Of a stretch of DNA of 64,000 nt, positions 7,169 through 52,130 are shown in pieces (the stretch's first letter is position 1; the number at the start of each line of letters is the position of its first letter). The stretch is from a virus. The notes below the pieces were generated by a model that was given only the letters and a program-made list of their open reading frames with translations, did not search any database and had not been told where the DNA came from. The stretch is taken from IMG/VR virus record IMGVR_UViG_3300041097_000006; one strand, 5' to 3'. Position numbers and translations under genes: made by a program.

Positions 7169-8850
7169 CCAGATATCCCCTTGTCTTCCTCGCTCCGCAC
7201 CGCAGCCCGCGACATGCCCATGAATATGGCAATCGCCCCGTCAATTTTCTGATCCGCCGCTTGCTTGACGGGTGAGTGCAGCCCCTTCGTGCTCGGCTTC
7301 CCAACAACGTTCGACAGGCACCACGTGGTGACCGGGTTCCCGTCGTGGTGCACTCGCCCGTCCACCAGGGCGGCGATGAAGTCGTCAACCGGCAGGGCGA
7401 AATTCCACGGTTTCTGCTGGAACTCTACTATATCTAGGGAATCGCCGACAATCTCCCCCACATCTAGGGCTACCTGCTGCGCGTTGAAAGGGTCGAAGAT
7501 GAATTCCCGGGCCCCGTAGGTGCGCAAGTCCGCGGCCACCTGCTCGGTAATCAGGCCGAAGTCCACCACCGCGCCGAGGGTCGGGGTGAGATGCCCCTCG
7601 CGCACCCACCGTTCATAGCTGGTACGGTTTTTCCCAGGGGCCTCGATGGTCTCCTGGGGAAGCCAGTACCGGCCGAACAGGTAGTAGTGGGGCTTTCCGT
7701 CCAGATACTTACGGAATGTATAGCTGGCAGCGCACAGGTCGATCTTGGACGCCATATCCAGAGACCCGAAACACTCGCACCCCGCGAGGTCCGCCGGCAT
7801 CAACAGCGGGTCCGCTGCGCGCTGCCAGTGCGCCAGGGGGATCAGCTGCGAACCAGCGCCGCACCACGCATTCAGGTGCTTGGTCTTGAACCGCGCCTGT
7901 GTTGCCGGCGTCATGATGGCCGCCCGCTGTTGCGCAATCAAAAAATCCTCGAACACGGAAACCCCGTAGTTGGGGTTCGCCTTCCGCAGCGCGGCCGGGT
8001 CCGTCCAGTCGTCGGCGTCGTCGATGCCGTAGAGCAGCCCGAACGCCTCGGGGTCGTCGATGACACCCTCCAGGATTTTTTTCACCCCCTGTTCATGCTC
8101 GTAGCATGGGCCTGCCAGGTTGTCCCCGGCGGTGGTGATAATCAACAGCAGTGGCTGCTCTCGCGCGCCCATGCCGGTCTGCATCGTGTCCACTAGATCC
8201 GGTACAGCATGCTCATGGTATTCATCAACAATGGCCGCGTGCGGGCTGGCGCCGTCCCCAGGTTTTCCAATGACGGGCTCGAACCGCGAGAAGTCCGCCT
8301 CGATAACCATCGAAGCTTTCAGTACCTCAATCCCGGCCGCCTCCAGCAAGTCCGGCGTTTTCTCGGCCATGAGCCGCGCCGGCCGGAACACCTCCCACGC
8401 CTGCCTTTCCGTTGTGGCACCGCTGTACACCTCCGCACCGTGTTCCCCATCCGCGCAGAAGAGCGCCAGGCCGATGGCCGCGGCCAGTACTGACTTACCG
8501 TTCTTGCGGGGGATTCGCAAGTATGCCGAACGGAAACGGCGCAGGCCGTCCTTATGACGCCGCCATCCGAAAATGTTGCACACGATGAACGACTGCCACG
8601 GTGCCAGTATCAGCATCTGCCGTTGCGCGGCCCACTTGCCCTTGACGTGCGGCAGAGCCTCGATGAACCGACACACGCGCTCGGCTTCGTCGACGTCGAA
8701 ATAGTACGGGTGCCCCGGCGTGTCTGACTCGGCCAGGTCGTTCAGGAACCGTTCGCACGCGCGGACTACCCACGCGCAATTGGGGATGGCCCCGTCGATT
8801 ACACCGTGCGCATAATCGAGTGCTGCCTGGACGTGGGGGCAATCAGCCAC
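7144..8850 (-). CDS. terL: Terminase large subunit (Terminase_1, HK97-like)
   Basis: Walker A IPRKNGKS, Walker B IVDEYHEH, ITTAG, nuclease LDMASKIDL and KIDGAIA. Confidence 0.97.
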   Translation of the reverse strand: MADCPHVQAALDYAHGVIDGAIPNCAWVVRACERFLNDLAESDTPGHPYYFDVDEAERVCRFIEALPHVKGKWAAQRQMLILAPWQSFIVCNIFGWRRHKDGLRRFRSAYLRIPRKNGKSVLAAAIGLALFCADGEHGAEVYSGATTERQAWEVFRPARLMAEKTPDLLEAAGIEVLKASMVIEADFSRFEPVIGKPGDGASPHAAIVDEYHEHAVPDLVDTMQTGMGAREQPLLLIITTAGDNLAGPCYEHEQGVKKILEGVIDDPEAFGLLYGIDDADDWTDPAALRKANPNYGVSVFEDFLIAQQRAAIMTPATQARFKTKHLNAWCGAGSQLIPLAHWQRAADPLLMPADLAGCECFGSLDMASKIDLCAASYTFRKYLDGKPHYYLFGRYWLPQETIEAPGKNRTSYERWVREGHLTPTLGAVVDFGLITEQVAADLRTYGAREFIFDPFNAQQVALDVGEIVGDSLDIVEFQQKPWNFALPVDDFIAALVDGRVHHDGNPVTTWCLSNVVGKPSTKGLHSPVKQAADQKIDGAIAIFMGMSRAAVRSEEDKGISGWLNNPVL

Positions 8851-9274
8851 GTGAGAGCAGCCCTCTGAACGCGTTCGCTCTTGGTGCCACGGGCAGACCG
8901 CGCATGACCTCCCCGCGCCCGGTGGGCGTCAGGCCCAGAGCCCGTAGGATCACGAACAGCCGGTTCAGCAAAGCCGGTTCCATGAACGCCCCATCCGCGC
9001 GGAACCGCGTCAGCAGGACCGCGGCCATCTCCACCACGAAGGCATCCGAAGTTTTCAGGGCCCCGGGAGGGGCGGCCCGTACCAGTTCGGCATAGCACAG
9101 AGCCGACTCCCACCCCATGTGATCGGGCGGAATGGGCTCCAGATCGGGCAAGCCCCCGGGTGCAGGTGTGCCCCCGGGTGCAGGCGGGCCGGAGGGCGCC
9201 GGGGCGGCGCGACGCTGCGGGTTTTTTTTGTACGCCCCCCGCAGCTCTAGGACGTTGGTCGGTAGCCGGCGCAT
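8843..9274 (-). CDS. terS: Terminase small subunit (P27 family)
   Basis: RRLPTNVLELRG N-terminus, LGLTPTGR C-terminal motif, directly upstream of terL. Confidence 0.88.
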   Translation of the reverse strand: MRRLPTNVLELRGAYKKNPQRRAAPAPSGPPAPGGTPAPGGLPDLEPIPPDHMGWESALCYAELVRAAPPGALKTSDAFVVEMAAVLLTRFRADGAFMEPALLNRLFVILRALGLTPTGRGEVMRGLPVAPRANAFRGLLSRG

Positions 9275-9381
9275 CGCAGCATCCATCTAGTGGGTAGACG
9301 GATGCCTAATACTAGATGTAGGGGGGTTATGTCAAGGCGGGTCCCGGGGGAGGGGGCGTTAACCGACGGAATCCGGCGATG

Positions 9382-9435
9382 AACACGTTGCAGCGGACGG
9401 GCCTGACGGCCCTCCGCTGAATTCACACGTTAGGT
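9382..9435 (+). repeat. attC: attC site 1, truncated (L'', L', R' present; R'' missing)
   Basis: AACAC GTTGCAGC GGACGGGCCTGACGGCCCTCC GCTGAAT TCACAC GTTAGGT; the 7 bp where R'' should be read GGCGATG. Confidence 0.75.
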
Positions 9436-9600
9436 TTCTCGGGCACGCTTGAGCGCAGCCCGCAGCCATTCTTTACCGCCGAGGCGGTCGTACTTCGCCT
9501 TCTCGGCTTCCGTTACCCGCTCCCGAATCATGGCCGTCTGAGCCTCTTCTGGTGGCAGTGCGGGGCGTCCGCGTGGCTTCTTTGGGGCCGCCTTAGTCAT
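9430..9600 (-). CDS. Cassette 1: 56-aa ribbon-helix-helix-like DNA-binding protein
   Basis: MTKAAPKKPRGRPALPPEEAQTAMIRERVTEAEKAKYDRLGGKEWLRAALKRARET; paralogue at 12048-12215; TAA stop is the complement of the TTA in R'. Confidence 0.7.
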   Translation of the reverse strand: MTKAAPKKPRGRPALPPEEAQTAMIRERVTEAEKAKYDRLGGKEWLRAALKRARET

Positions 9601-9877
9601 TCGCGCTCCGCAGGTATTCGCGCAGCGTGAGCGTTTCTCCGGCGTGCAGCCGCTTGTTGCACTTCGGACAGGTGTATGTCGAGCCGTGCGAACCGTCGCT
9701 ATGCTCGCAATCAACCGGGTACGGTGCTTCTGACCAGCCGCGCGCCATGTTCCACAGGTCAGGCTCGCCATCGCTGCATGGCGTACCTGGCCGAGATTGC
9801 GCTCCGCAGCACTGGCAAACCGCCCGCACTTTCCCATTCCTCGCTCGCACATAATTGACCGCTTTGCTGGTGCTCAT
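9593..9877 (-). CDS. Cassette 1: zinc-ribbon protein (CxxC...CxxC), unknown function
   Basis: VCQCCG...TYTCPKCN; GGGAG 7 nt before ATG 9877; overlaps the start of the regulator gene. Confidence 0.7.
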   Translation of the reverse strand: MSTSKAVNYVRARNGKVRAVCQCCGAQSRPGTPCSDGEPDLWNMARGWSEAPYPVDCEHSDGSHGSTYTCPKCNKRLHAGETLTLREYLRSAND

Positions 9878-9909
9878 CGTTTGCTCCCGCTTTCGTTGAT
9901 CGTGCATTT

Positions 9910-9955
9910 AGTGTGGCACAACAATTAGCGGTGCGCAAGCATTATTTGTGGCACA
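9910..9955 (-). promoter_or_regulatory. Cassette 1 sigma70-like promoter with two TGTG-G-CACA operator-like palindromes
   Basis: Minus strand TTGCGC-17bp-CACACT; TGTGGCACA at 9912-9920 and 9947-9955; same layout in cassette 6. Confidence 0.6.
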
Positions 9956-9958
9956 AAA

Positions 9959-10016
9959 ACCTAACTCCACATTGCACCGGATCGCCTCCGGCGCCCGGTG
10001 AATTCAGTCGTTAGAG
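9959..10016 (+). repeat. attC: attC site 2 (58 bp, intact)
   Basis: ACCTAAC TCCAC ATT[G]CACC GG[A]TCGCCTCCGGCGCCC GGTGAAT TCAGTC GTTAGAG. Confidence 0.92.
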
Positions 10017-10273
10017 CGCATGCGAATCTTGTCCGCCGCATCCCCAGCCGTTCCGTGTTCGTGGTCGCAGATGTTTGCGCAAACCTCGCGCTCGGCGAGC
10101 ACAGCCAGCCCGACGCAGTTCTCCGCAATCGCTTCTACTTGCTTGCGCCCGTCGCGCTCGCCGGCTTTGTATGCCGCTTGCGCAACCTCTTCCGCGTCCG
10201 CTCTCCCGATCCCATGCCCGGCCATCATGGAGTGGTATCGCTTGCTGCGCTTCTTCCAGTCTGCAAAGCTCAT
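10004..10273 (-). CDS. Cassette 2: 89-aa hypothetical phage protein
   Basis: GGGAG SD; AAYKAGERDG...AEREVCANIC...AADKIRMRSN resembles small phage proteins; ends inside attC2. Confidence 0.7.
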   Translation of the reverse strand: MSFADWKKRSKRYHSMMAGHGIGRADAEEVAQAAYKAGERDGRKQVEAIAENCVGLAVLAEREVCANICDHEHGTAGDAADKIRMRSND

Positions 10274-10302
10274 TTGTCGTTCTCCCTCTTGTCGGCCGTG
10301 CG

Positions 10303-10360
10303 CTCTAACACTACGTTGCAGCCGACCGCCTTCGGCGGCGGCTGAACTTCGACGTTAGAG
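10303..10360 (+). repeat. attC: attC site 3 (58 bp, intact)
   Basis: CTCTAAC ACTAC GTT[G]CAGC CG[A]CCGCCTTCGGCGGCG GCTGAAC TTCGAC GTTAGAG. Confidence 0.95.
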
Positions 10361-10367
10361 CGCTCCA

Positions 10368-11060
10368 TCACTCCGCACCAAAGCTCGCGGCAAGCCGGTC
10401 GTCGAAAGCGTCGTCGCTCTTGTCGCGCAAGATGCCCTCGAAAAACACGTCGGGCTCAGACTCCAGCAGGAAATGCGTCGCGCACGTCCAGGCTTTCGCC
10501 TCATCCTTCGCTTCCGGCGTCATCCTCTCGCTGCGGTCAATGGCCGCGAGGTATTCGCACTTCCGGCACTCTTGGCCGAGTCCGCAGCGCAAATGGTTGT
10601 CGGGTAGCGGCATCGCCGGTCTGGGGTCGTGGCCGCACATCTTGTAGCTGGTCGGCATGCCGCGCTCGCGCTCGTACTGGAACAGCAGCACCATGCGTGG
10701 CACTTCGTCGCTGATCTTCATTGCCGAGTACATCACTCGCGGCCACTCGCCGCCGTTCTCGCGCAGCCGGTCGCTCTCGGCGTTGCAGGCAGCGTGCCAT
10801 GCGTGGTCGCCGCATCCGCGCTGGTCAGTTCCACGGTTCGCCCGTTCCAGCCGCATTCCGCGCATGTACTCGGCGCCTTCCTTCAGCTGCTCCAGCATGT
10901 TGCCGCGGTCTCTGGCATAGCGGCGCAGGTACACGCCGGCCATCAGGCGGTCCTTCTGCTCAGGCGTCATTTTGTCGCGGTCCATGCCGGGCCAGCGCCA
11001 TAGCTCTTCGTGGTCAATCCGGTTCGCCAGTGCTTCCAGTTCTTCGGGTGTTGCTGCCAT
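10368..11060 (-). CDS. Cassette 3: ~230-aa hypothetical protein with Cys/His-rich C-terminal half
   Basis: Long ORF filling the cassette; GGAG 9 nt before ATG 11060; CGH...HLRC...ECRKC...WTCATH. Confidence 0.8.
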   Translation of the reverse strand: MAATPEELEALANRIDHEELWRWPGMDRDKMTPEQKDRLMAGVYLRRYARDRGNMLEQLKEGAEYMRGMRLERANRGTDQRGCGDHAWHAACNAESDRLRENGGEWPRVMYSAMKISDEVPRMVLLFQYERERGMPTSYKMCGHDPRPAMPLPDNHLRCGLGQECRKCEYLAAIDRSERMTPEAKDEAKAWTCATHFLLESEPDVFFEGILRDKSDDAFDDRLAASFGAE

Positions 11061-11089
11061 CTTCAAATTCTCCAAGTTCTACCACCGCG

Positions 11090-11146
11090 CTCTAACTATC
11101 GCTTGCAGCGGACGCCGTACCGGCGCCGCTGAAGCTGGCGTTAGAA
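11090..11146 (+). repeat. attC: attC site 4 (57 bp, intact)
   Basis: CTCTAAC TATCG CTT[G]CAGC GG[A]CGCCGTACCGGCGCC GCTGAAG CTGGC GTTAGAA. Confidence 0.95.
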
Positions 11147-11398
11147 CCCTTGAAACTCGCCCATGCGCTCGAACTGGTCGCGGGTCAGGAATACCGGCGT
11201 CACGGTGTATTCGCAGTCGCTCTCCGCAACCATCGCCTCAGCCTCGGCCGGCTCCATCACGCACGCGGTGCCGTCGTGCTCGACGCGAGAAAATCGCTCC
11301 GTCTTGTAGTCTTCGCACCCCGGCGCATGGTCAGCCGGTGGGTATTTGCCGCCCTTCGTTTCTTGCCAGTCGCGGCACCAGTCCTTGCAGTTGCACAT
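11141..11398 (-). CDS. Cassette 4: 85-aa hypothetical protein (Cys-rich N-terminus)
   Basis: MCNCKDWC...HAPGC...; SD GGAGG comes from the attC5 spacer; TAA stop lies in R' of attC4. Confidence 0.7.
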   Translation of the reverse strand: MCNCKDWCRDWQETKGGKYPPADHAPGCEDYKTERFSRVEHDGTACVMEPAEAEAMVAESDCEYTVTPVFLTRDQFERMGEFQGF

Positions 11399-11401
11399 GG
11401 G

Positions 11402-11489
11402 TTCTAACCCTCCGTTGCAGCAGACGCCGTGAAGCGCCGCAGGTTTATCCAAGCGCCGTCGCGCGGCGCTGCTGAACTACACGTTATGC
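11402..11489 (+). repeat. attC: attC site 5 (88 bp, intact)
   Basis: TTCTAAC CCTCC GTT[G]CAGC AG[A]CGCCG...CGGCGCT GCTGAAC TACAC GTTATGC. Confidence 0.93.
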
Positions 11490-12004
11490 GACGCAGCCCG
11501 AATCTCCCACAGGGTTCGAGCAACCCCGCTTTCCTCGGTGGCATCGCGCTTGTCCCGGAGCTTCACGCTGCTTTCGGCCCAGTTCTTGCGCGGTGCCAAG
11601 TCCTTCGCTTTCACCCAACCGGCAGCGCGGAGGGATGCCCCGCTTTCGTCCTGCCGGGTGTAGGTAATACACCGCCTGTACCCCATGGCTTTCGCCGCCC
11701 GCCAAATCGCCCCATACAACATCGAGTTGGCATTTCTGGTTCCATCGGTGCAAGTGCGGTTAACTTCCAAGGTCAGGCCGTCGTCAAAGCACCGGGCCAC
11801 GGGTCGCCCAGCCGTAGCAACGCCAACCAGTTCGGTGCCCTGGCGCAGCCCAACCCCAAACTTCCAGCCTGTCGGCGGCTTGTTGTGTCGGCGCATCGCG
11901 GCCACGAACGCCTTGGCCTCTGCCAGTGTTATCGGCACCACATGCAAAACCGGCATAACAAGGCGGTCAAGCGGACCTGCCGAAACGGCGCTTTCGCTCA
12001 TCAT
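11477..12004 (-). CDS. Cassette 5: XF1762-family phage protein (GNAT-like fold, inferred)
   Basis: RHNKPPTGWKFGVG, LVGVATAGRPVAR.FDDGLTLEVNRTCTDGTRNANSMLYGA, ITYT..DESGASLRAAGW; start lies inside attC6. Confidence 0.8.
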   Translation of the reverse strand: MMSESAVSAGPLDRLVMPVLHVVPITLAEAKAFVAAMRRHNKPPTGWKFGVGLRQGTELVGVATAGRPVARCFDDGLTLEVNRTCTDGTRNANSMLYGAIWRAAKAMGYRRCITYTRQDESGASLRAAGWVKAKDLAPRKNWAESSVKLRDKRDATEESGVARTLWEIRAASHNV

Positions 12005-12046
12005 TTACCCTTATCTCGCGGCAGTCCGCTTACCTCTACGTTAGGT
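11953..12046 (+). repeat. attC: attC site 6 (94 bp, intact)
   Basis: GCATAAC AAGGC GGT[C]AAGC GGA[C]CTGCCG...CGGCAGTCC GCTTACC TCTAC GTTAGGT. Confidence 0.93.
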
Positions 12047-12051
12047 TTCAT
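12001..12051 (-). CDS. Possible 16-codon coupling mini-ORF through attC6 (MKPNVEVSGLPRDKGK)
   Basis: ATG overlaps the stop of the 12048-12215 gene and its TGA overlaps the ATG of the cassette 5 gene (ATGA at both ends). Confidence 0.4.
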   Translation of the reverse strand: MKPNVEVSGLPRDKGK

Positions 12052-12215
12052 TTCCGCGGCTTCCTGGCCAGCTCGCGCACAAGCCAAGCCTTCCCGCCAC
12101 GCGCTTCGTATTCAGCCTTCTGTGCCTCCGTCACCCGCTCCCGAATCATGGCCGTCTGCGCTTGGTCAGGCGGTAGCGCAGGACGGCCGGGCTGTCGTTT
12201 CTCGGCCTTGGTCAT
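12048..12215 (-). CDS. Cassette 6: 55-aa ribbon-helix-helix-like DNA-binding protein (absent from ORF track)
   Basis: Hand translation MTKAEKRQPGRPALPPDQAQTAMIRERVTEAQKAEYEARGGKAWLVRELARKPRK; 28/36 identical to the cassette 1 regulator core. Confidence 0.75.
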   Translation of the reverse strand: MTKAEKRQPGRPALPPDQAQTAMIRERVTEAQKAEYEARGGKAWLVRELARKPRK

Positions 12216-12403
12216 GCGGCAATCGCATCCACGCCAGGAGCGCGAATCACAAGATCATTGCTGCCGCAATCCGGGCAACAATAGTTGTCCACCTTGGTCA
12301 AGGTGCCATCGGCCTTCCAGCCGGTCCAAGGCTTGTTCTCCCGCTCTTCCAGCGGGAGAATTACGCGGCACTTCATGCAACGGAAATGGGTCTCGGTTTT
12401 CAT
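12212..12403 (-). CDS. Cassette 6: 63-aa zinc-ribbon protein
   Basis: FRCMKCR...YCCPDCGSNDL; GGAGG SD before ATG 12403; ATGA-coupled to the regulator. Confidence 0.7.
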   Translation of the reverse strand: MKTETHFRCMKCRVILPLEERENKPWTGWKADGTLTKVDNYCCPDCGSNDLVIRAPGVDAIAA

Positions 12404-12414
12404 CTTCGCCTCCA

Positions 12415-12558
12415 TTACTTCGGGGCGCGTTGCGTAACTTTGAGCTGACCCTTCAGGTGGCCTTCGAGAATTTCGATCTCGTAGAACATCCCGCCGTGAA
12501 TGGTCATGGTCTTGCCGGTATAGCGGGCTAGGTCGCCGTAGAAGTAGGTGGTTTTCAT
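12415..12558 (-). CDS. Cassette 6: 47-aa hypothetical protein
   Basis: MKTTYFYGDLARYTGK...; GGAG SD; first gene after the cassette promoter. Confidence 0.65.
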   Translation of the reverse strand: MKTTYFYGDLARYTGKTMTIHGGMFYEIEILEGHLKGQLKVTQRAPK

Positions 12559-12589
12559 GTTGCGCTCCGCGTTCGTTGATGGTGTAGTT

Positions 12590-12634
12590 ATTGTGGCGCA
12601 ATAATCAACCATTGTCAAGCGTTTTCGTGGCACA
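12590..12634 (-). promoter_or_regulatory. Cassette 6 sigma70 promoter with two operator-like palindromes
   Basis: Minus strand TTGACA-17bp-CACAAT; TGTGGCGCA at 12592-12600 and CGTGGCACA at 12626-12634. Confidence 0.7.
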
Positions 12635-12637
12635 GAA

Positions 12638-12707
12638 ACCTAACTCCACATTCCACCGGACGGCCCAAATCTGCGCTTTGGTCCTCCGGTGAATTCAGCC
12701 GTTGGGC
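12638..12707 (+). repeat. attC: attC site 7 (70 bp, intact)
   Basis: ACCTAAC TCCAC ATT[C]CACC GG...CC GGTGAAT TCAGCC GTTGGGC; close relative of attC2. Confidence 0.92.
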
Positions 12708-13258
12708 TTCATGAAAACGTACCAGTGCGTTCCGGCCTTCTTGCCGGAGGTGTTGCCGAACAGTGGCCGCACTGGCGTCAGATCCAAGACCTCGCGCACC
12801 TTCACTTGCGTTTCGTTCCACTTGAACACGAGCACGCCGTGAGGCCTCAGCACGCGGAAGCATTCGGCAAAGCCGGCGCGCAGGTCGTCGCGCCAGTCCT
12901 GGCCGAGCTTCCCGTACTTCGCCGCCAGCCAGGAGCGCGGGCCAGCGCGCACCAAATGCGGCGGGTCAAACGCTACGAGGTGGAAGCTCTCTTCCGGGTA
13001 TGGCAGCGCCCGGAAGTCCATCATCACGTCCGGCTCAATGCACAGCGTTCGCGTGCCATCCTCGCGGCCGTGCGAGCGGTCGGTCACGGTCACGGTCTCG
13101 CTGCGCCGGTCTCCGAACACGACGTCCGGGTTCTCGCGGTCAAACCAGAACATCCGGCTACCGCAGCAGGGGTCAAGCACGCGCGGCATGCAGCCCAACC
13201 CGTCGGTCAACACGGACTGCCCGCCAGCAGCGTTCGTTCGCGCGTTGTGGTCGCTCAA
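12695..13258 (-). CDS. Cassette 7: phage SAM-dependent (putative DNA amino-) methyltransferase
   Basis: VLDPCCGSRMFWF, DFRALPY, VAFDPPHL, ECFRVLRPHGVLVFKWNE; SD AAGGAG and TTG start inside attC8. Confidence 0.85.
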   Translation of the reverse strand: MSDHNARTNAAGGQSVLTDGLGCMPRVLDPCCGSRMFWFDRENPDVVFGDRRSETVTVTDRSHGREDGTRTLCIEPDVMMDFRALPYPEESFHLVAFDPPHLVRAGPRSWLAAKYGKLGQDWRDDLRAGFAECFRVLRPHGVLVFKWNETQVKVREVLDLTPVRPLFGNTSGKKAGTHWYVFMKPNG

Positions 13259-13318
13259 CCTTCTTCTCCTTCGGTGGCCGCGCCAGAGGCGGGCAGCCGG
13301 TTACCTTCGACGTTAGAG
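13193..13318 (+). repeat. attC: attC site 8 (126 bp, intact, three extrahelical bases)
   Basis: GCCCAAC CCGTC GGT[C]AAC[A]CGG[A]CTGCCCGCC...GGCGGGCAGCCGGTTACC TTCGAC GTTAGAG. Confidence 0.92.
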
Positions 13319-13510
13319 CGCGTCTTGATCCTGCGCGTAATAGACCTTCCTCGCCTCGGAAATAACTTGCGTAATCGCAGAGCCGAGCCGCGAGGATGGC
13401 CACTTGTTTTCGAGTTGGTCCCGCAGAGCCGTCCACTCCTTCACCGACATGGTGATCTTCACGGTTGCCTCAATCTCGTCAGGCGCTTCAATCATGAATC
13501 TGGCTTTCAT
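13313..13510 (-). CDS. Cassette 8: 65-aa hypothetical protein
   Basis: MKARFMIEAPDEIEATVKITMSVKEW...; GGAG SD; TAA stop in R' of attC8. Confidence 0.7.
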   Translation of the reverse strand: MKARFMIEAPDEIEATVKITMSVKEWTALRDQLENKWPSSRLGSAITQVISEARKVYYAQDQDAL

Positions 13511-13533
13511 TTCTTTCTCCGTAGTTACCTGCG

Positions 13534-13578
13534 CTCTAACATTTGCGTCAACGCGGACGCTTCGCAAGCTCAGCGCCG
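13534..13578 (+). repeat. attC: attC site 9, truncated (R'', L'' and inner stem present; L' and R' missing)
   Basis: CTCTAAC ATTTG CGT[C]AAC[G]CGG[A]CGCT...AGCGCCG, then unrelated sequence in place of GTTACG...GTTRRRY. Confidence 0.75.
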
Positions 13579-13589
13579 ACTGCACCGGC

Positions 13590-13670
13590 ATTGTGGAACC
13601 GAAAATTTGCCTGGGAGCGACGGTTTCCATTCCGCCACGCCACGAAATTTTCACCCCCCTTCCCCTCCGT
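13590..13670 (-). other. Putative cos / packaging-initiation region
   Basis: G-rich run then AAAATTTC...GGAAACCG...AAATTTTCGG right after the HNH stop; in HK97-like phages cos lies between HNH and terS (inference from position). Confidence 0.4.
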
Positions 13671-14115
13671 CGATATTTTCCGAACAGGATCGGCCAATCG
13701 GCATTTCCCGCGGCCCGTCGTCCGGCTGCCGGCTCGTACCGTCACGCTGGCGCCCCGGGTGCCGCTCGTAGCCCCTCTGACGCTCCGCCTCCGACTTGGC
13801 ATCACTGCATGCCCGGCAGAGCCCTTGCGTATTCTCCGGCGTGTCCGAGCCGCCTTCAGCCAGCGGCACGATGTGATCCCGAATCGTCGCCAGTTCGACC
13901 CGTCCCGCCGCCTCACACGCCGCGCACAACGGGGAGTGCCGAAACAGTTCCTCGCGCTGCCGCTGGAGCCATCGCCCGGTTCTCCGCCGGCCCGTTTCGC
14001 TCGCGGTATTTTTCCACGCCGGTTGTTCGTGATCGCCACACCGCGAGGATTTACCGTCCGTTAATTCTGTGCATCCAGGATACGTGCACGGTTTTTTCGG
14101 TAATTTTCTCGCCAC
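13651..14115 (-). CDS. HNH endonuclease (HK97 gp74-like terminase accessory)
   Basis: KPCTYPGC...RC..H, PLCAAC...ATIRDHIVPLAEGGSD...N.QGLCRAC..AKS; GTG start after AGGAGG. Confidence 0.9.
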   Translation of the reverse strand: MARKLPKKPCTYPGCTELTDGKSSRCGDHEQPAWKNTASETGRRRTGRWLQRQREELFRHSPLCAACEAAGRVELATIRDHIVPLAEGGSDTPENTQGLCRACSDAKSEAERQRGYERHPGRQRDGTSRQPDDGPREMPIGRSCSENIDGGEGG

Positions 14116-14196
14116 GGTATTTCCTCCTGAAATATAAATAGGCATCCCGCATACCGTCCGGCCCGCCGTCCGATTCGCCCATCTCCTCCATCCCCT

Positions 14197-14396
14197 TGTC
14201 CGAAACGTCCGATTCACCTCCCCTTTAGGGGGTGAATCGGACGTTTCGGACATAGGGGAATGGATGGGCGTACGATAATCGACGTGACTAATCGGACATG
14301 AATCGTACGCTGATTCGTACGCTGCGAATACGAAAAATCGGACGATAATTATCGTCATGAACGCGGTAATTATGAGCCCGGTTATCATAATTACCG
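14197..14396. promoter_or_regulatory. Cluster of perfect inverted repeats (candidate replication origin or regulatory hub)
   Basis: 22-bp IR 14197-14218/14231-14252, 16-bp palindrome GACGATAATTATCGTC 14341-14356, 12-bp IR 14364-14375/14385-14396; recurrent AATCGGAC and CGTACG. Confidence 0.6.
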
Positions 14397-14675
14397 TACC
14401 GAACCCGCCCGCACCACGGGATACCGGCCCGTCCGCCAAATCGTCCAGGGCGAATTCAACGCCCCCCGTAACCCGCCGGGGGCCAGGTCCAGCAGCGCGC
14501 AACACCACACGAACCCGAACGGCCGGCGGTCGTCGCTGTATACCCACCGCGCGGGCTCCAGTGTGGCCGCCACGTCCGGGGGCATCTGGCGCAGGTTCGC
14601 CTGGTGGTCACGGACGGCCTGGAGGATGACGGCGGCCACCAGGCCCCGGTGAAACGCTATTTGCTCGGCGTTCAT
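14391..14675 (-). CDS. Hypothetical protein (94 aa)
   Basis: LVAAVILQAVRD...ARW..SDD..PFGFVWCC..LDL.P..LR pattern typical of small phage proteins; ATGA-coupled. Confidence 0.7.
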   Translation of the reverse strand: MNAEQIAFHRGLVAAVILQAVRDHQANLRQMPPDVAATLEPARWVYSDDRRPFGFVWCCALLDLAPGGLRGALNSPWTIWRTGRYPVVRAGSVR

Positions 14676-47754: not shown

Positions 47755-47909
47755 CGCAGCATCCATCTAGTGGGTAGACGGATGCCTAATACTAGATGTA
47801 GGGGGGTTATGTCAAGGCGGGTCCCGGGGGAGGGGGCGTTAACCGACGGAATCCGGCGATGAACACGTTGCAGCGGACGGGCCTGACGGCCCTCCGCTGA
47901 ATTCACACG

Positions 47910-48080
47910 TTAGGTTTCTCGGGCACGCTTGAGCGCAGCCCGCAGCCATTCTTTACCGCCGAGGCGGTCGTACTTCGCCTTCTCGGCTTCCGTTACCCGC
48001 TCCCGAATCATGGCCGTCTGAGCCTCTTCTGGTGGCAGTGCGGGGCGTCCGCGTGGCTTCTTTGGGGCCGCCTTAGTCAT
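47910..48080 (-). CDS. Copy 2: cassette 1 RHH-like regulator
   Basis: Same as 9430-9600. Confidence 0.7.
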   Translation of the reverse strand: MTKAAPKKPRGRPALPPEEAQTAMIRERVTEAEKAKYDRLGGKEWLRAALKRARET

Positions 48081-48357
48081 TCGCGCTCCGCAGGTATTCG
48101 CGCAGCGTGAGCGTTTCTCCGGCGTGCAGCCGCTTGTTGCACTTCGGACAGGTGTATGTCGAGCCGTGCGAACCGTCGCTATGCTCGCAATCAACCGGGT
48201 ACGGTGCTTCTGACCAGCCGCGCGCCATGTTCCACAGGTCAGGCTCGCCATCGCTGCATGGCGTACCTGGCCGAGATTGCGCTCCGCAGCACTGGCAAAC
48301 CGCCCGCACTTTCCCATTCCTCGCTCGCACATAATTGACCGCTTTGCTGGTGCTCAT
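48073..48357 (-). CDS. Copy 2: cassette 1 zinc-ribbon protein
   Basis: Same as 9593-9877. Confidence 0.7.
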   Translation of the reverse strand: MSTSKAVNYVRARNGKVRAVCQCCGAQSRPGTPCSDGEPDLWNMARGWSEAPYPVDCEHSDGSHGSTYTCPKCNKRLHAGETLTLREYLRSAND

Positions 48358-48483
48358 CGTTTGCTCCCGCTTTCGTTGATCGTGCATTTAGTGTGGCACA
48401 ACAATTAGCGGTGCGCAAGCATTATTTGTGGCACAAAAACCTAACTCCACATTGCACCGGATCGCCTCCGGCGCCCGGTGAAT

Positions 48484-48753
48484 TCAGTCGTTAGAGCGCA
48501 TGCGAATCTTGTCCGCCGCATCCCCAGCCGTTCCGTGTTCGTGGTCGCAGATGTTTGCGCAAACCTCGCGCTCGGCGAGCACAGCCAGCCCGACGCAGTT
48601 CTCCGCAATCGCTTCTACTTGCTTGCGCCCGTCGCGCTCGCCGGCTTTGTATGCCGCTTGCGCAACCTCTTCCGCGTCCGCTCTCCCGATCCCATGCCCG
48701 GCCATCATGGAGTGGTATCGCTTGCTGCGCTTCTTCCAGTCTGCAAAGCTCAT
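48484..48753 (-). CDS. Copy 2: cassette 2 hypothetical protein
   Basis: Same as 10004-10273. Confidence 0.7.
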   Translation of the reverse strand: MSFADWKKRSKRYHSMMAGHGIGRADAEEVAQAAYKAGERDGRKQVEAIAENCVGLAVLAEREVCANICDHEHGTAGDAADKIRMRSND

Positions 48754-48847
48754 TTGTCGTTCTCCCTCTTGTCGGCCGTGCGCTCTAACACTACGTTGCA
48801 GCCGACCGCCTTCGGCGGCGGCTGAACTTCGACGTTAGAGCGCTCCA

Positions 48848-49540
48848 TCACTCCGCACCAAAGCTCGCGGCAAGCCGGTCGTCGAAAGCGTCGTCGCTCT
48901 TGTCGCGCAAGATGCCCTCGAAAAACACGTCGGGCTCAGACTCCAGCAGGAAATGCGTCGCGCACGTCCAGGCTTTCGCCTCATCCTTCGCTTCCGGCGT
49001 CATCCTCTCGCTGCGGTCAATGGCCGCGAGGTATTCGCACTTCCGGCACTCTTGGCCGAGTCCGCAGCGCAAATGGTTGTCGGGTAGCGGCATCGCCGGT
49101 CTGGGGTCGTGGCCGCACATCTTGTAGCTGGTCGGCATGCCGCGCTCGCGCTCGTACTGGAACAGCAGCACCATGCGTGGCACTTCGTCGCTGATCTTCA
49201 TTGCCGAGTACATCACTCGCGGCCACTCGCCGCCGTTCTCGCGCAGCCGGTCGCTCTCGGCGTTGCAGGCAGCGTGCCATGCGTGGTCGCCGCATCCGCG
49301 CTGGTCAGTTCCACGGTTCGCCCGTTCCAGCCGCATTCCGCGCATGTACTCGGCGCCTTCCTTCAGCTGCTCCAGCATGTTGCCGCGGTCTCTGGCATAG
49401 CGGCGCAGGTACACGCCGGCCATCAGGCGGTCCTTCTGCTCAGGCGTCATTTTGTCGCGGTCCATGCCGGGCCAGCGCCATAGCTCTTCGTGGTCAATCC
49501 GGTTCGCCAGTGCTTCCAGTTCTTCGGGTGTTGCTGCCAT
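48848..49540 (-). CDS. Copy 2: cassette 3 hypothetical protein
   Basis: Same as 10368-11060. Confidence 0.8.
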   Translation of the reverse strand: MAATPEELEALANRIDHEELWRWPGMDRDKMTPEQKDRLMAGVYLRRYARDRGNMLEQLKEGAEYMRGMRLERANRGTDQRGCGDHAWHAACNAESDRLRENGGEWPRVMYSAMKISDEVPRMVLLFQYERERGMPTSYKMCGHDPRPAMPLPDNHLRCGLGQECRKCEYLAAIDRSERMTPEAKDEAKAWTCATHFLLESEPDVFFEGILRDKSDDAFDDRLAASFGAE

Positions 49541-49620
49541 CTTCAAATTCTCCAAGTTCTACCACCGCGCTCTAACTATCGCTTGCAGCGGACGCCGTAC
49601 CGGCGCCGCTGAAGCTGGCG

Positions 49621-49878
49621 TTAGAACCCTTGAAACTCGCCCATGCGCTCGAACTGGTCGCGGGTCAGGAATACCGGCGTCACGGTGTATTCGCAGTCGC
49701 TCTCCGCAACCATCGCCTCAGCCTCGGCCGGCTCCATCACGCACGCGGTGCCGTCGTGCTCGACGCGAGAAAATCGCTCCGTCTTGTAGTCTTCGCACCC
49801 CGGCGCATGGTCAGCCGGTGGGTATTTGCCGCCCTTCGTTTCTTGCCAGTCGCGGCACCAGTCCTTGCAGTTGCACAT
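49621..49878 (-). CDS. Copy 2: cassette 4 hypothetical protein
   Basis: Same as 11141-11398. Confidence 0.7.
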   Translation of the reverse strand: MCNCKDWCRDWQETKGGKYPPADHAPGCEDYKTERFSRVEHDGTACVMEPAEAEAMVAESDCEYTVTPVFLTRDQFERMGEFQGF

Positions 49879-49956
49879 GGGTTCTAACCCTCCGTTGCAG
49901 CAGACGCCGTGAAGCGCCGCAGGTTTATCCAAGCGCCGTCGCGCGGCGCTGCTGAA

Positions 49957-50484
49957 CTACACGTTATGCGACGCAGCCCGAATCTCCCACAGGGTTCGAG
50001 CAACCCCGCTTTCCTCGGTGGCATCGCGCTTGTCCCGGAGCTTCACGCTGCTTTCGGCCCAGTTCTTGCGCGGTGCCAAGTCCTTCGCTTTCACCCAACC
50101 GGCAGCGCGGAGGGATGCCCCGCTTTCGTCCTGCCGGGTGTAGGTAATACACCGCCTGTACCCCATGGCTTTCGCCGCCCGCCAAATCGCCCCATACAAC
50201 ATCGAGTTGGCATTTCTGGTTCCATCGGTGCAAGTGCGGTTAACTTCCAAGGTCAGGCCGTCGTCAAAGCACCGGGCCACGGGTCGCCCAGCCGTAGCAA
50301 CGCCAACCAGTTCGGTGCCCTGGCGCAGCCCAACCCCAAACTTCCAGCCTGTCGGCGGCTTGTTGTGTCGGCGCATCGCGGCCACGAACGCCTTGGCCTC
50401 TGCCAGTGTTATCGGCACCACATGCAAAACCGGCATAACAAGGCGGTCAAGCGGACCTGCCGAAACGGCGCTTTCGCTCATCAT
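49957..50484 (-). CDS. Copy 2: cassette 5 XF1762-family protein
   Basis: Same as 11477-12004. Confidence 0.8.
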   Translation of the reverse strand: MMSESAVSAGPLDRLVMPVLHVVPITLAEAKAFVAAMRRHNKPPTGWKFGVGLRQGTELVGVATAGRPVARCFDDGLTLEVNRTCTDGTRNANSMLYGAIWRAAKAMGYRRCITYTRQDESGASLRAAGWVKAKDLAPRKNWAESSVKLRDKRDATEESGVARTLWEIRAASHNV

Positions 50485-50527
50485 TTACCCTTATCTCGCG
50501 GCAGTCCGCTTACCTCTACGTTAGGTT

Positions 50528-50695
50528 TCATTTCCGCGGCTTCCTGGCCAGCTCGCGCACAAGCCAAGCCTTCCCGCCACGCGCTTCGTATTCAGCCTTC
50601 TGTGCCTCCGTCACCCGCTCCCGAATCATGGCCGTCTGCGCTTGGTCAGGCGGTAGCGCAGGACGGCCGGGCTGTCGTTTCTCGGCCTTGGTCAT
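50528..50695 (-). CDS. Copy 2: cassette 6 RHH-like regulator
   Basis: Same as 12048-12215. Confidence 0.75.
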   Translation of the reverse strand: MTKAEKRQPGRPALPPDQAQTAMIRERVTEAQKAEYEARGGKAWLVRELARKPRK

Positions 50696-50883
50696 GCGGC
50701 AATCGCATCCACGCCAGGAGCGCGAATCACAAGATCATTGCTGCCGCAATCCGGGCAACAATAGTTGTCCACCTTGGTCAAGGTGCCATCGGCCTTCCAG
50801 CCGGTCCAAGGCTTGTTCTCCCGCTCTTCCAGCGGGAGAATTACGCGGCACTTCATGCAACGGAAATGGGTCTCGGTTTTCAT
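50692..50883 (-). CDS. Copy 2: cassette 6 zinc-ribbon protein
   Basis: Same as 12212-12403. Confidence 0.7.
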   Translation of the reverse strand: MKTETHFRCMKCRVILPLEERENKPWTGWKADGTLTKVDNYCCPDCGSNDLVIRAPGVDAIAA

Positions 50884-50894
50884 CTTCGCCTCCA

Positions 50895-51038
50895 TTACTT
50901 CGGGGCGCGTTGCGTAACTTTGAGCTGACCCTTCAGGTGGCCTTCGAGAATTTCGATCTCGTAGAACATCCCGCCGTGAATGGTCATGGTCTTGCCGGTA
51001 TAGCGGGCTAGGTCGCCGTAGAAGTAGGTGGTTTTCAT
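50895..51038 (-). CDS. Copy 2: cassette 6 47-aa protein
   Basis: Same as 12415-12558. Confidence 0.65.
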   Translation of the reverse strand: MKTTYFYGDLARYTGKTMTIHGGMFYEIEILEGHLKGQLKVTQRAPK

Positions 51039-51174
51039 GTTGCGCTCCGCGTTCGTTGATGGTGTAGTTATTGTGGCGCAATAATCAACCATTGTCAAGC
51101 GTTTTCGTGGCACAGAAACCTAACTCCACATTCCACCGGACGGCCCAAATCTGCGCTTTGGTCCTCCGGTGAAT

Positions 51175-51738
51175 TCAGCCGTTGGGCTTCATGAAAACGT
51201 ACCAGTGCGTTCCGGCCTTCTTGCCGGAGGTGTTGCCGAACAGTGGCCGCACTGGCGTCAGATCCAAGACCTCGCGCACCTTCACTTGCGTTTCGTTCCA
51301 CTTGAACACGAGCACGCCGTGAGGCCTCAGCACGCGGAAGCATTCGGCAAAGCCGGCGCGCAGGTCGTCGCGCCAGTCCTGGCCGAGCTTCCCGTACTTC
51401 GCCGCCAGCCAGGAGCGCGGGCCAGCGCGCACCAAATGCGGCGGGTCAAACGCTACGAGGTGGAAGCTCTCTTCCGGGTATGGCAGCGCCCGGAAGTCCA
51501 TCATCACGTCCGGCTCAATGCACAGCGTTCGCGTGCCATCCTCGCGGCCGTGCGAGCGGTCGGTCACGGTCACGGTCTCGCTGCGCCGGTCTCCGAACAC
51601 GACGTCCGGGTTCTCGCGGTCAAACCAGAACATCCGGCTACCGCAGCAGGGGTCAAGCACGCGCGGCATGCAGCCCAACCCGTCGGTCAACACGGACTGC
51701 CCGCCAGCAGCGTTCGTTCGCGCGTTGTGGTCGCTCAA
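51175..51738 (-). CDS. Copy 2: cassette 7 methyltransferase
   Basis: Same as 12695-13258. Confidence 0.85.
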   Translation of the reverse strand: MSDHNARTNAAGGQSVLTDGLGCMPRVLDPCCGSRMFWFDRENPDVVFGDRRSETVTVTDRSHGREDGTRTLCIEPDVMMDFRALPYPEESFHLVAFDPPHLVRAGPRSWLAAKYGKLGQDWRDDLRAGFAECFRVLRPHGVLVFKWNETQVKVREVLDLTPVRPLFGNTSGKKAGTHWYVFMKPNG

Positions 51739-51792
51739 CCTTCTTCTCCTTCGGTGGCCGCGCCAGAGGCGGGCAGCCGGTTACCTTCGACG

Positions 51793-51990
51793 TTAGAGCG
51801 CGTCTTGATCCTGCGCGTAATAGACCTTCCTCGCCTCGGAAATAACTTGCGTAATCGCAGAGCCGAGCCGCGAGGATGGCCACTTGTTTTCGAGTTGGTC
51901 CCGCAGAGCCGTCCACTCCTTCACCGACATGGTGATCTTCACGGTTGCCTCAATCTCGTCAGGCGCTTCAATCATGAATCTGGCTTTCAT
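51793..51990 (-). CDS. Copy 2: cassette 8 hypothetical protein
   Basis: Same as 13313-13510. Confidence 0.7.
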   Translation of the reverse strand: MKARFMIEAPDEIEATVKITMSVKEWTALRDQLENKWPSSRLGSAITQVISEARKVYYAQDQDAL

Positions 51991-52130
51991 TTCTTTCTCC
52001 GTAGTTACCTGCGCTCTAACATTTGCGTCAACGCGGACGCTTCGCAAGCTCAGCGCCGACTGCACCGGCATTGTGGAACCGAAAATTTGCCTGGGAGCGA
52101 CGGTTTCCATTCCGCCACGCCACGAAATTT

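Follow-up and report, generated by a model that had tools for sequence, protein, structure and literature searches.

Clusters of attC sites lacking an integron integrase (CALINs), as well as integrons, have been described in bacteriophage genomes by Qi, Rajabal, Ghaly, Tetu and Gillings (2023, Front Microbiol; PMC9892861), and attC sites of those phage CALINs were recombined by IntI1 in assays. The array that we analyze here resembles them in being an attC cluster without IntI inside a phage genome and in carrying a DNA methyltransferase among its cargo. The phage CALINs shown in PMC9892861, however, have two or three attC sites, whereas this array holds eight cassettes joined by an unbroken chain of complementary R boxes. 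Their cassettes are described as having typical or divergent orientation, but every gene here is antisense to its attC site. Moreover, and unlike the CALINs in PMC9892861, our array adjoins likely cohesive (cos) genome ends, and related phage contigs hold the same cassettes beside their own IntI. Thus, phage CALINs are already published, and the reversed cargo is the new part as far as we searched the literature, in which we found no description of reversed-cassette phage integrons.

Two further systems invite comparison. Class 1 integrons (In2 of R100, In1 of R46) and the integrons of soil and freshwater proteobacteria have the same attC architecture and G|TT crossover as this array. With class 1 the likeness extends to arm sequences (positions 3966-4061 of contig L019, one of the related phage contigs, resemble the aadA1 attC), to the IntI of relatives, which is 58% identical to class 1 IntI1, and to the divergence of intI from the attC top strand. 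Class 1 integrons nevertheless possess intI and attI, neither of which is present in this phage, and their genes are sense to attC and driven by Pc, an arrangement that is impossible with the antisense genes found here. By contrast, the reverse-oriented toxin–antitoxin cassettes of sedentary chromosomal integrons combine genes antisense to attC with an internal promoter. Cassettes 1 and 6 have a similar layout, in which two or three genes form a unit, a sigma-70-like promoter is present and GTGGCACA boxes are repeated. Reversed cassettes are a minority in chromosomal integrons, whereas here all eight are reversed and six lack a promoter of their own.

An eight-cassette array beside the likely genome ends

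The window, by which we mean the entire 64,000-nt stretch analyzed, is a wrapped circular phage genome with an exact period of 38,480 nt. We are confident that it contains an integron-type gene cassette array within the complete 38,480-bp genome of a cos-type siphophage, placed between the physical genome ends and terS (Table 1). A minus-strand block of HNH, terS, terL and portal genes stands on both sides of the array. The contig break at 13611/13623 is present in runs X2–X4, of which X3 shows a TruSeq adapter at 13611, and JGI and Logan contigs terminate close to the same break.

Table 1 Features of the cassette array, from left to right in window coordinates
Feature	Position	Strand	Details
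attC site 1	9375-9438	+	R1 30.9 bits; L''/stem/L' hairpin, intact R' (GTTAGGTTTC)
Cassette 1	9430-10010	+	attC site 2 at 9956-10019; own promoter/operator region
Cassette 1 genes	9877-9593; 9600-9430	-	94 aa, zinc-ribbon-like; 56 aa
Cassette 2	10011-10354	+	attC site 3 at 10300-10363
Cassette 2 gene	10273-10004	-	89 aa; stop 7 nt beyond cassette
Cassette 3	10355-11140	+	attC site 4 at 11087-11149; BLAST match to L019 spans 10354-11143
Cassette 3 gene	11060-10368	-	230 aa, conserved phage protein
Cassette 4	11141-11483	+	attC site 5 at 11399-11492
Cassette 4 gene	11398-11141	-	85 aa
Cassette 5	11484-12040	+	attC site 6 at 11950-12049
Cassette 5 gene	12004 (or 11956)-11477	-	Mom-like DNA modification protein; phrog_1384, E = 3e-37
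Cassette 6	12041-12701	+	Paralogue of cassette 1; attC site 7 at 12635-12710
Cassette 6 genes	12558-12415; 12415-12212; 12215-12048	-	
Cassette 6 promoter	12618-12590	-	sigma-70-like
Cassette 7	12702-13312	+	attC site 8 at 13190-13321, R1 36.9 bits
Cassette 7 gene	13189-12695	-	Phage-type DNA methyltransferase; phrog_954, E = 7.5e-72
Cassette 8	13313-13560	+	Open-ended
Cassette 8 gene	13510-13313	-	65 aa
Half-site 9	R'' (GCGCTCTAAC) ends 13540	+	5' arm only, without L' or R'; no R1 match
Likely cos overhang	13612-13622		Contigs end at 13611 and resume at 13623
Second array copy	47855-52040	+	Arises from wrapping of the 38,480-bp circle (exact period); no duplication

The phage has its own replication genes. 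In a tblastn search of the 38.5-kb genome with the L019 IntI, all E-values were 0.45 or worse; the scan of ORFs revealed no recombinase domain, and no intI or attI adjoins the array. Eight matches to R1, a covariance model built from these hairpins, fall within 4 kb, with zero in the rest of the genome. The array, with at least two close attC sites and no intI nearby, is a CALIN because the phage has no IntI, and any recombination of its cassettes therefore requires an integrase in trans. A distant-mode search of GenBank phages with the array found no related array; the matches show only coding similarity, in methyltransferase and acetyltransferase/Mom-like genes. TerS relatives in IMG/VR comprise six loci at ≤39% identity, and none of the four that were searched (L001, L002, L005 and L006) has an R1 match.

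Each cassette begins with the TT of a GTTRRRY box and has the complementary R'' and its own hairpin near the opposite end. The sites have R'' (RYYYAAC) and R' (GTTRRRY) boxes around L''/L' and a variable loop, within the ~55–140 nt typical of attC; sites 2–8 span 58–132 nt, and AAC...GTT is invariant. There are two exceptions. Site 1 has a degenerate R'', in which only 2 nt, instead of 5 nt, separate AAC from L'', and its homology to sites 2 and 7 ends within the 5' spacer; site 9 is only a half-site. The end of cassette 8 is undefined because no R' lies downstream. With both outer sites defective, cassettes 1 and 8 may be locked in place. The array is also a poor candidate for block insertion by IntI into a secondary site, as its ends are unfit for this (the left with a hairpin, the right without L'/R'), and half-site 9 and site 1 do not form a single attC, as their stems do not match.

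Complementary R boxes and the folding of circular cassettes

When IntI opens the bottom strand of a circular cassette between A and C of the R' box, corresponding to G|TT on the top strand, each inserted cassette is left with an R'' complementary to the preceding R'. The initial annotation described such a chain, and its strings and lengths agree letter for letter with ours at 8/8 junctions. From junction 1/2 to junction 8/9, R' of one site matches R'' of the next over 9, 11, 10, 10, 7, 10, 8 and 10 bp (GTT counted), with the G of the R' boxes at 9429, 10010, 10354, 11140, 11483, 12040, 12701 and 13312. Within a site, R'' and R' usually fail to match, as was also claimed, sharing only 5, 10, 6, 4, 4, 3 and 3 bp. 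The exception is site 3, as the boxes of cassettes 2 and 3 are of one type.

The permutation test that had been suggested for partner matching places the observed pairing near the top when all 40,320 pairings are enumerated. Its summed match of 75 is reached by 10 pairings (mean 45.4), and just 12 have ≥7 bp at all junctions, these being swaps among three GTTAGAGCGC boxes and two GTTAGGTTT boxes. The chain is also present in seven other phage arrays, where cognate junctions mostly match over 8–13 bp and non-cognate ones over ~4 bp on average. When the cassettes are circularized in silico, as had also been proposed, the attC bottom strands fold as hairpins with paired R boxes, an internal loop and a bulged L box. 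Cognate circular attC sites have a lower dG than the genomic hybrids at 7/7 sites, and their summed dG of -187.8, against a permutation mean of -154.3, is equally low in 6 of the 40,320 permutations. In alignment A1, whose sites were pre-selected for pairing, the L/stem helix is 100% paired and 7 of 9 pairs have changed on both sides.

The cut strand and the origin of the array

As the chain is symmetric under strand reversal, it is alone silent on which R box is cut, and the cassette limits proposed in the initial annotation were favored by three independent tests: extra-base polarity, the covariance model and external junctions. An extrahelical base in the L'' arm, which defines the recombinogenic bottom strand of attC sites, is present here. 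In sites 2–7, one extra base lies in the plus-strand 5' arm, 3 nt past the 5-nt spacer, as in the aadA1 attC; site 8 has further bulges. On the bottom strand, the extra base would read as C at sites 1–5 and as G at sites 6–8. A structural scan (AAC, 5 nt, 3 nt, one extra base and a 6-bp stem, then the other half of the stem, 3 nt, 5–6 nt and GTT) matched sites 2–7 on the plus strand and nothing on the minus strand, and it found the R100 plasmid aadA1 attC on the gene-sense strand with identical geometry. R1 likewise matched class 1 attC sites of R100 and R46 on the gene-sense strand; the R46 integron has four, and all were hit, among them those of oxa2 and orfD, which are outside the R1 training set. 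pIPO2T (L065), an engineered plasmid, was left out of the controls.

Junctions in other genomes agree. Cassette 1 in L040 (86% identity over 580 nt) and cassette 3 in L019 each stand directly behind an identical attI (...AATTGGA G|TTAG...) with an integron integrase adjoining, and cassette 3 in L067 follows another hairpin. Homology to the window begins at G|TT in all three and, in L019 and L040, continues through the right-hand hairpin to the next GTT. Homology to cassette 7 in L029 likewise begins at the G|TT of an attC match, so that external breakpoints at G|TT exist for cassettes 1, 3 and 7. Every cassette start complements its own R'' (8/8 junctions), and assembly from circular cassettes opened between G and TT, as originally proposed, is thus supported by evidence additional to the chain.

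Could the same array be read on the other strand? The genes would then be oriented as in ordinary cassettes, the hairpin downstream of each gene would belong to the same cassette as that gene, the cut would fall in what we and the initial annotation call R'', and every limit would move by one hairpin. Besides the symmetry of the chain, this reading is favored by genes that fill the space between R boxes, by the genes of cassettes 2, 5 and 7, which extend 7 nt past the G|TT limit to stops just inside the left-hand hairpin, and by cassette 3 relatives in other metagenomes, which diverge directly past AAC, where another hairpin follows the C of R'' (11096). Against it, the extra base at every site sits in the arm that marks plus as the top strand, and R1 scores sites 1–8 at 31–68 bits on that strand but ≤23 bits on the minus strand. 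The class 1 controls show the opposite relation of gene to attC, the homology breakpoints in L019, L040 and L067 coincide with G|TT of the plus-strand reading, the right-hand hairpin being included, and with attC on that strand intI and attI take their canonical position in relatives. The other-strand reading is already largely refuted, and we regard it as very improbable. The chance that the hairpins are ordinary intergenic stem-loops (terminators, REP-like repeats or phage module boundary sequences) is smaller still, close to nil. They are GC-rich and lie between genes, and weak termination has been attributed to attC sites in work cited in PMC9892861. A terminator-like excess over shuffles is absent, however, and the conserved AAC/GTT, 5-nt spacer, bulged L box and variable loop align with the aadA1 attC. 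The stem-loop reading is refuted by the R46 matches, by the true IntI and attI that adjoin such arrays in relatives, and by the attI-joined cassettes.

A different question, concerning only origin and leaving assembly at G|TT undisputed, is whether the array is a passive piece of an integron or CALIN from a host chromosome, acquired once by illegitimate recombination next to cos, with neither a phage-specific role nor later cassette traffic. The phage has no IntI, a site 1 without R'' and a site 9 without L'/R' are not expected from attC × attI or attC × secondary-site insertion, and phages that took up parts of host integrons have been reported (Qi et al. 2023; PMC9892861). We nonetheless consider a passive origin unlikely, as the cargo is of phage type (a Mom-like protein, a phage methyltransferase and a protein of many phage accessory regions), the cassette genes run in the direction of the phage genes on either side, and the same cassettes stand first at attI of integrons in other phage contigs.

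Reversed genes and their proposed expression and exchange

In an ordinary cassette the gene precedes attC and reads in the sense of the attC top strand, the relation seen in the R100 and R46 controls. In this array, attC occupies the plus strand and every cassette gene the minus strand, attC lies upstream of the gene in each cassette, and the direction of the genes is that of their phage neighbors. Cassette genes of relatives with IntI read towards intI, and the longest ORF is opposite to attC in 32 of the 38 inter-attC intervals upstream of intI. The cassette genes would be expressed by read-through from the phage operon, with cassettes 1 and 6 as probable exceptions that use their own promoters. 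A search of RNA data matched only small-share relatives, with no match bearing on expression of this phage. The Mom-like modifier and the DNA methyltransferase probably help the phage against host restriction. The cassette 3 protein belongs to no Pfam or PHROG family, and its AlphaFold2 model (pLDDT 78.9) gave no fold match with a useful E-value in the PDB or among AFDB clusters; proteins of this type occur in many phage accessory regions.

IntI relatives are carried by 38 viral contigs. The integrase of L019, to which the 58% identity with IntI1 refers, has the IntI-specific insertion and RHRY residues and scores 477 bits on TIGR02249 (cutoff 265). Cassettes 1 and 3 stand first at attI of integrons encoded by phage contigs, which is consistent with a pathway in which an IntI encoded by a phage or a host, acting in trans, would assemble cassettes and exchange them among phages. 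The hairpin and R boxes of cassette 4 are 91% identical to L019:4642-4733, where the ORF is unrelated. In other metagenomes the site 4 hairpin, like cassette 3 relatives, occurs with other partners, so that linkage of gene to hairpin is not absolute. In one sediment study, the contigs of four runs showed no excision joints, although contigs drop rare variants. On balance, we think it probable that the array belongs to a phage-adapted integron lineage with backward cassettes (gene antisense to attC), whose cargo is expressed only in a phage operon reading towards intI and whose anti-restriction and accessory genes are traded among phages through the IntI of some, this cos phage being an integrase-less recipient that needs IntI in trans.

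The chain is the textbook scar of integron recombination, and its confirmation mainly certifies that the cassettes are real and their limits exact. It is more unusual that a phage without an integrase holds eight exchangeable modules, anti-restriction cargo among them, beside its likely cos site, and that the same modules sit at attI of related phages with a true IntI. Because integron rules would place every gene on the other strand, the Pc logic of expression when near attI is removed; the reversed genes imply a different coupling of capture to expression, one tied to phage transcription. The array thus offers a concrete, testable system for the shuffling of accessory and counter-defence genes by phages.

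Complementary R boxes and the strand of the attC sites

The initial annotation held that the R'' flank of each cassette is the reverse complement of the R' flank of the preceding site, as if circular cassettes had been opened between G and TT. Our own reading of the sequence gives the same eight G|TT positions, and the same eight complementary flanks, as its text. Contiguous matches between R' of one site and the reverse complement of R'' of the next span 9, 11, 10, 10, 7, 10, 8 and 10 bp, whereas R'' and R' of the same site match over 5, 10, 6, 4, 4, 3 and 3 bp. When the partner-matching permutation proposed with that claim was run as a full enumeration, the observed sum was reached by 10 of 40,320 pairings, and at least 7 bp at every junction by 12, all of which represent interchangeable members of two box families. 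Each cassette was also circularized in silico and the bottom strand of the rebuilt attC was folded, giving an R box of 9–11 bp, a central spacer that stays unpaired and an L box whose 3' arm has a one-base bulge. The folding check suggested in the annotation was passed, as the genomic hybrid site was less stable than the cognate circular attC in all seven comparisons, and a summed energy as low as that of the cognate set occurred in only 6 of 40,320 permutations. The same chain is present in seven further phage arrays, and an R''/R' chain of this kind is a known fingerprint.

This chain is symmetric under strand reading, in that the minus strand gives the same box pairs flanking the same genes. 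A minus-strand reading would move the cut into the other R box and assign each cassette the other hairpin. All of the genes lie on that strand, starting just after one R box and stopping in or just past the other, and at first sight they look like ordinary cassettes. Nevertheless, a scan for asymmetric attC geometry returns sites 2–7, all on the plus strand, and none on minus; our covariance model of attC (R1) scores all eight window sites at 31–68 bits on plus and at most 23 bits on minus; and the same cassettes join at G|TT in related loci. These three lines of evidence, which go beyond the symmetric chain, decide for the plus-strand reading of the initial annotation, in which each cassette owns its right-hand hairpin.

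Known integrons served as controls. In the record of the class 1 integron plasmid R100, the aadA1 attC reads TCTAAC, 5 nt, GTT, an extra C and stem, then stem, AAC, 6 nt and GTTAGAT on the gene-sense strand, with intI1 to its left on the opposite strand, and the geometry scan recovers this site on its gene-sense strand. The R1 training set comprised 24 sites of asymmetric geometry, 23 of them from phage contigs; the scores of 31–68 bits on plus extend to sites 1 and 8, which lie outside that set, and R1 has no match in the phage genome beyond the eight array sites. R1 also recovers all four attC sites of the plasmid R46 class 1 integron; each site follows the 3' end of a gene (oxa2, aadA1, oxa2 and orfD) and lies on the strand of that gene.

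Cassettes and hairpins in other phage contigs

The cassette 3 protein (230 aa) has 226 homologues, including identical copies on contigs of the same phage and many, without hairpins, in accessory regions of unrelated prophages. In a 40-kb phage contig (L019), a copy that is 88% identical is the last of a row of small plus-strand genes, with attC matches between them on the minus strand, and a 336-aa integron integrase lies 72 bp beyond it. On TIGR02249 (cutoff 265) this integrase reaches 477 bits; it shares 58% identity with IntI1 and contains both the IntI-specific insertion (ALERKYP...DPR...RRHH) and the catalytic residues. With attC read on the top strand, intI and attI are placed as in any integron.

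Alignment of the window with L019 by BLAST yields 10354–11143, which is cassette 3 as delimited in the initial annotation plus the shared GTT(A). At the left junction, the site 3 hairpin in the window and attI in L019 (...AATTGGA) are both followed by G|TTAGA.CGCTCCATCAC; at the right, homology continues through R'' and both hairpin arms and ends after GTT. A second contig (L040), with the same attI and an integrase fragment 99% identical to the L019 enzyme, joins attI to a cassette 1 homologue at G|TTAGGTTTC, with 86% identity over 580 nt that includes the right-hand hairpin. In a third IntI-bearing contig (L067), cassette 3 is fourth in line behind another hairpin (junction G|TTAGAGCGCTCCATCAC), and the attI junction there keeps the chain rule too. 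Elsewhere (L029), a cassette 7 homologue starts at the G|TT of an attC match. One attI with different cassettes, and one cassette with different left neighbors, always at G|TT, is the signature expected of IntI recombination. Together, the chain match, pairing enumeration, circular folds, polarity and external junctions confirm what the annotation observed and support how it interpreted it.

Six other viral contigs (L044, L045, L048, L049, L061 and L062) carry IntI relatives (about 47–53% identical) with attC matches downstream of intI on the same strand, an arrangement unlike that of L019. At L019:3966–4061 (minus), the attC arms are nearly identical to those of the class 1 aadA1 attC (TCTAACA.TTCGTTCAAGCCGA ... 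CGGCTTAACTCA.GCGTT). On one contig from an NCBI assembly, a cassette 3 homologue without hairpins is followed, immediately past its stop, by a GTTAGAAC box (L024:7280–7290), which may be a relic of cassette origin.

In wastewater and aquatic sequencing runs (X5, X8, X12 and X14), relatives of cassette 3 depart from it immediately beyond the C of R'' (AAC, 11096) and continue into a different attC-like hairpin, and the site 4 hairpin also occurs with other, unrelated flanks. In L019, an unrelated ORF is flanked by a hairpin and R boxes that are 91% identical to those of site 5. Hairpins thus act in part like a shared repeat family, similar to the VCRs of Vibrio. From the switches right after AAC and the unrelated flanks of the site 4 hairpin, it follows that genes and hairpins re-assort at both R boxes; the linkage of gene to hairpin is not absolute, and such switches might result from homologous exchange or from rare top-strand recombination. 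In the same sediment, a low-depth contig (run X2, record 5) has the stem-loop of site 3 between R boxes of another sequence (AAACCTAAC ... GTTAGGCGTC), and the community therefore contains a second cassette array of this attC family.

The array in the phage genome

Every feature in the 64-kb window recurs at +38,480, an exact period. The window is therefore a single circular 38.5-kb genome (38,480 bp) written about 1.7 times, and the array recurs only because of this wrap. The genome is that of a phage, encoding a portal, TerL, a TerS-like protein, an HNH endonuclease, a primase-helicase, an SNF2-type helicase, a family A polymerase, tail proteins and a glucosaminidase; its 38.5 kb yielded no integrase of any type. 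The array is located between the HNH gene and terS.

Positions of features in and around the array
Feature	Window position	Strand	Remark
terS	8843-9286	minus	one flank of array
8-bp inverted repeat (CATCTAGT ... ACTAGATG)	9293-9329		between terS start and site 1
Region upstream of cassette 1 gene	9887-9981		
Cassette 2 gene, 7 nt past G|TT limit	10004-10010		
Site 3 stem-loop	10315-10347		
Cassette 3 protein	10368-11060	minus	
Site 4 hairpin	11086-11145		
Cassette 5 gene, 7 nt past G|TT limit	11477-11483		
Region upstream of cassette 6 gene	12567-12660		
Cassette 6 sigma-70 match	12618-12590	minus	
Cassette 7 gene, 7 nt past G|TT limit	12695-12701		
HNH gene	13651-14547	minus	other flank of array

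At the array ends, site 1 has a hairpin, an intact R' and a displaced R'', and its similarity to sites 2 and 7 ends in the 5' spacer; site 9 consists of R'' and the 5' arm only. Insertion at attI or a secondary site does not fit these structures. Non-IntI recombination probably brought the block to its present position or trimmed it there. Cassette 8 cannot be excised, and perhaps the same is true of cassette 1.

In three runs, contigs break off at 13611 and resume at 13623. A TruSeq adapter is ligated at 13611 in one of them (X3), and JGI and Logan assemblies, made independently, also terminate near 13611–13623; run X4, with Nextera adapters at many contig ends, is weaker evidence for genome ends. 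These breaks suggest that 13612–13622 is an 11-nt overhang (TGGGAGCGACG) of the physical genome ends, beside the HNH gene, an arrangement shared with HK97-like, HNH-dependent cos phages. Some 50–80 bp thus separate the array from the likely cos site.

By definition, this array is a phage CALIN, as in Qi et al. 2023 (PMC9892861); it does not qualify as a complete integron, and it departs from the ordinary gene/attC orientation. Among 10,705 genomes, that study reported three complete integrons, one integron-integrase without cassettes and 17 CALINs, illustrated phage examples with two or three attC sites, and found that IntI1 recombined five of six tested sites. Methyltransferases are among the cargo it describes, as in cassette 7 of the window. 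In open papers, we found no published description of uniformly reversed cargo or of a phage-borne IntI lineage with such cargo.

Reversed genes and their expression signals

With attC polarity and cassette limits on the plus strand and genes on the minus strand, every cassette gene in the window is therefore antisense to its attC, and the hairpin lies upstream of the gene. The cassette genes are co-directional with HNH, terS and terL, and those of IntI-bearing relatives run towards intI. The same comparison was made in viral contigs that carry an IntI relative and an array upstream of it: of the 38 intervals between neighboring attC matches, 32 have a longest ORF that runs opposite to attC, a count made with a crude ORF call and including two near-duplicate loci.

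The products of cassettes 5 and 7, a Mom-like DNA modification protein (phrog_1384, 3e-37) and a DNA methyltransferase (phrog_954, 7.5e-72), are phage-typical. The cassette 3 protein has conserved Cys/His residues, is widespread in phage accessory regions (L012, L015 and L070), and in some prophages neighbors Tad3- and Acb2/Tad1-like genes; no Pfam or PHROG family covers it, and its predicted model (pLDDT 78.9) has no fold match. Calling it a candidate counter-defense protein is only a guess.

Space for a promoter exists only in the paralogous cassettes 1 and 6, and cassette 6 has a 10/12 sigma-70 match (TTGACA-17-CACAAT). The regions upstream of their genes are 80% identical and contain repeated GTGGCACA(A/G) boxes, and their last genes (55/56 aa) are 76% identical. 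From these sequences, both look like self-regulated modules; the remaining cassettes presumably must depend on read-through for expression. The genes of cassettes 2, 5 and 7 extend 7 nt past the cassette start and stop in the 3' spacer of the neighboring attC, at TCA or CTA on plus, the frequent TCA being TGA on the gene strand, and their last two codons are therefore context-dependent. In cassette 4, CCTCC in the attC 5' spacer is GGAGG on the gene strand, 10 nt ahead of the start codon. Thus, attC supplies stop and ribosome-binding signals to the reversed genes.
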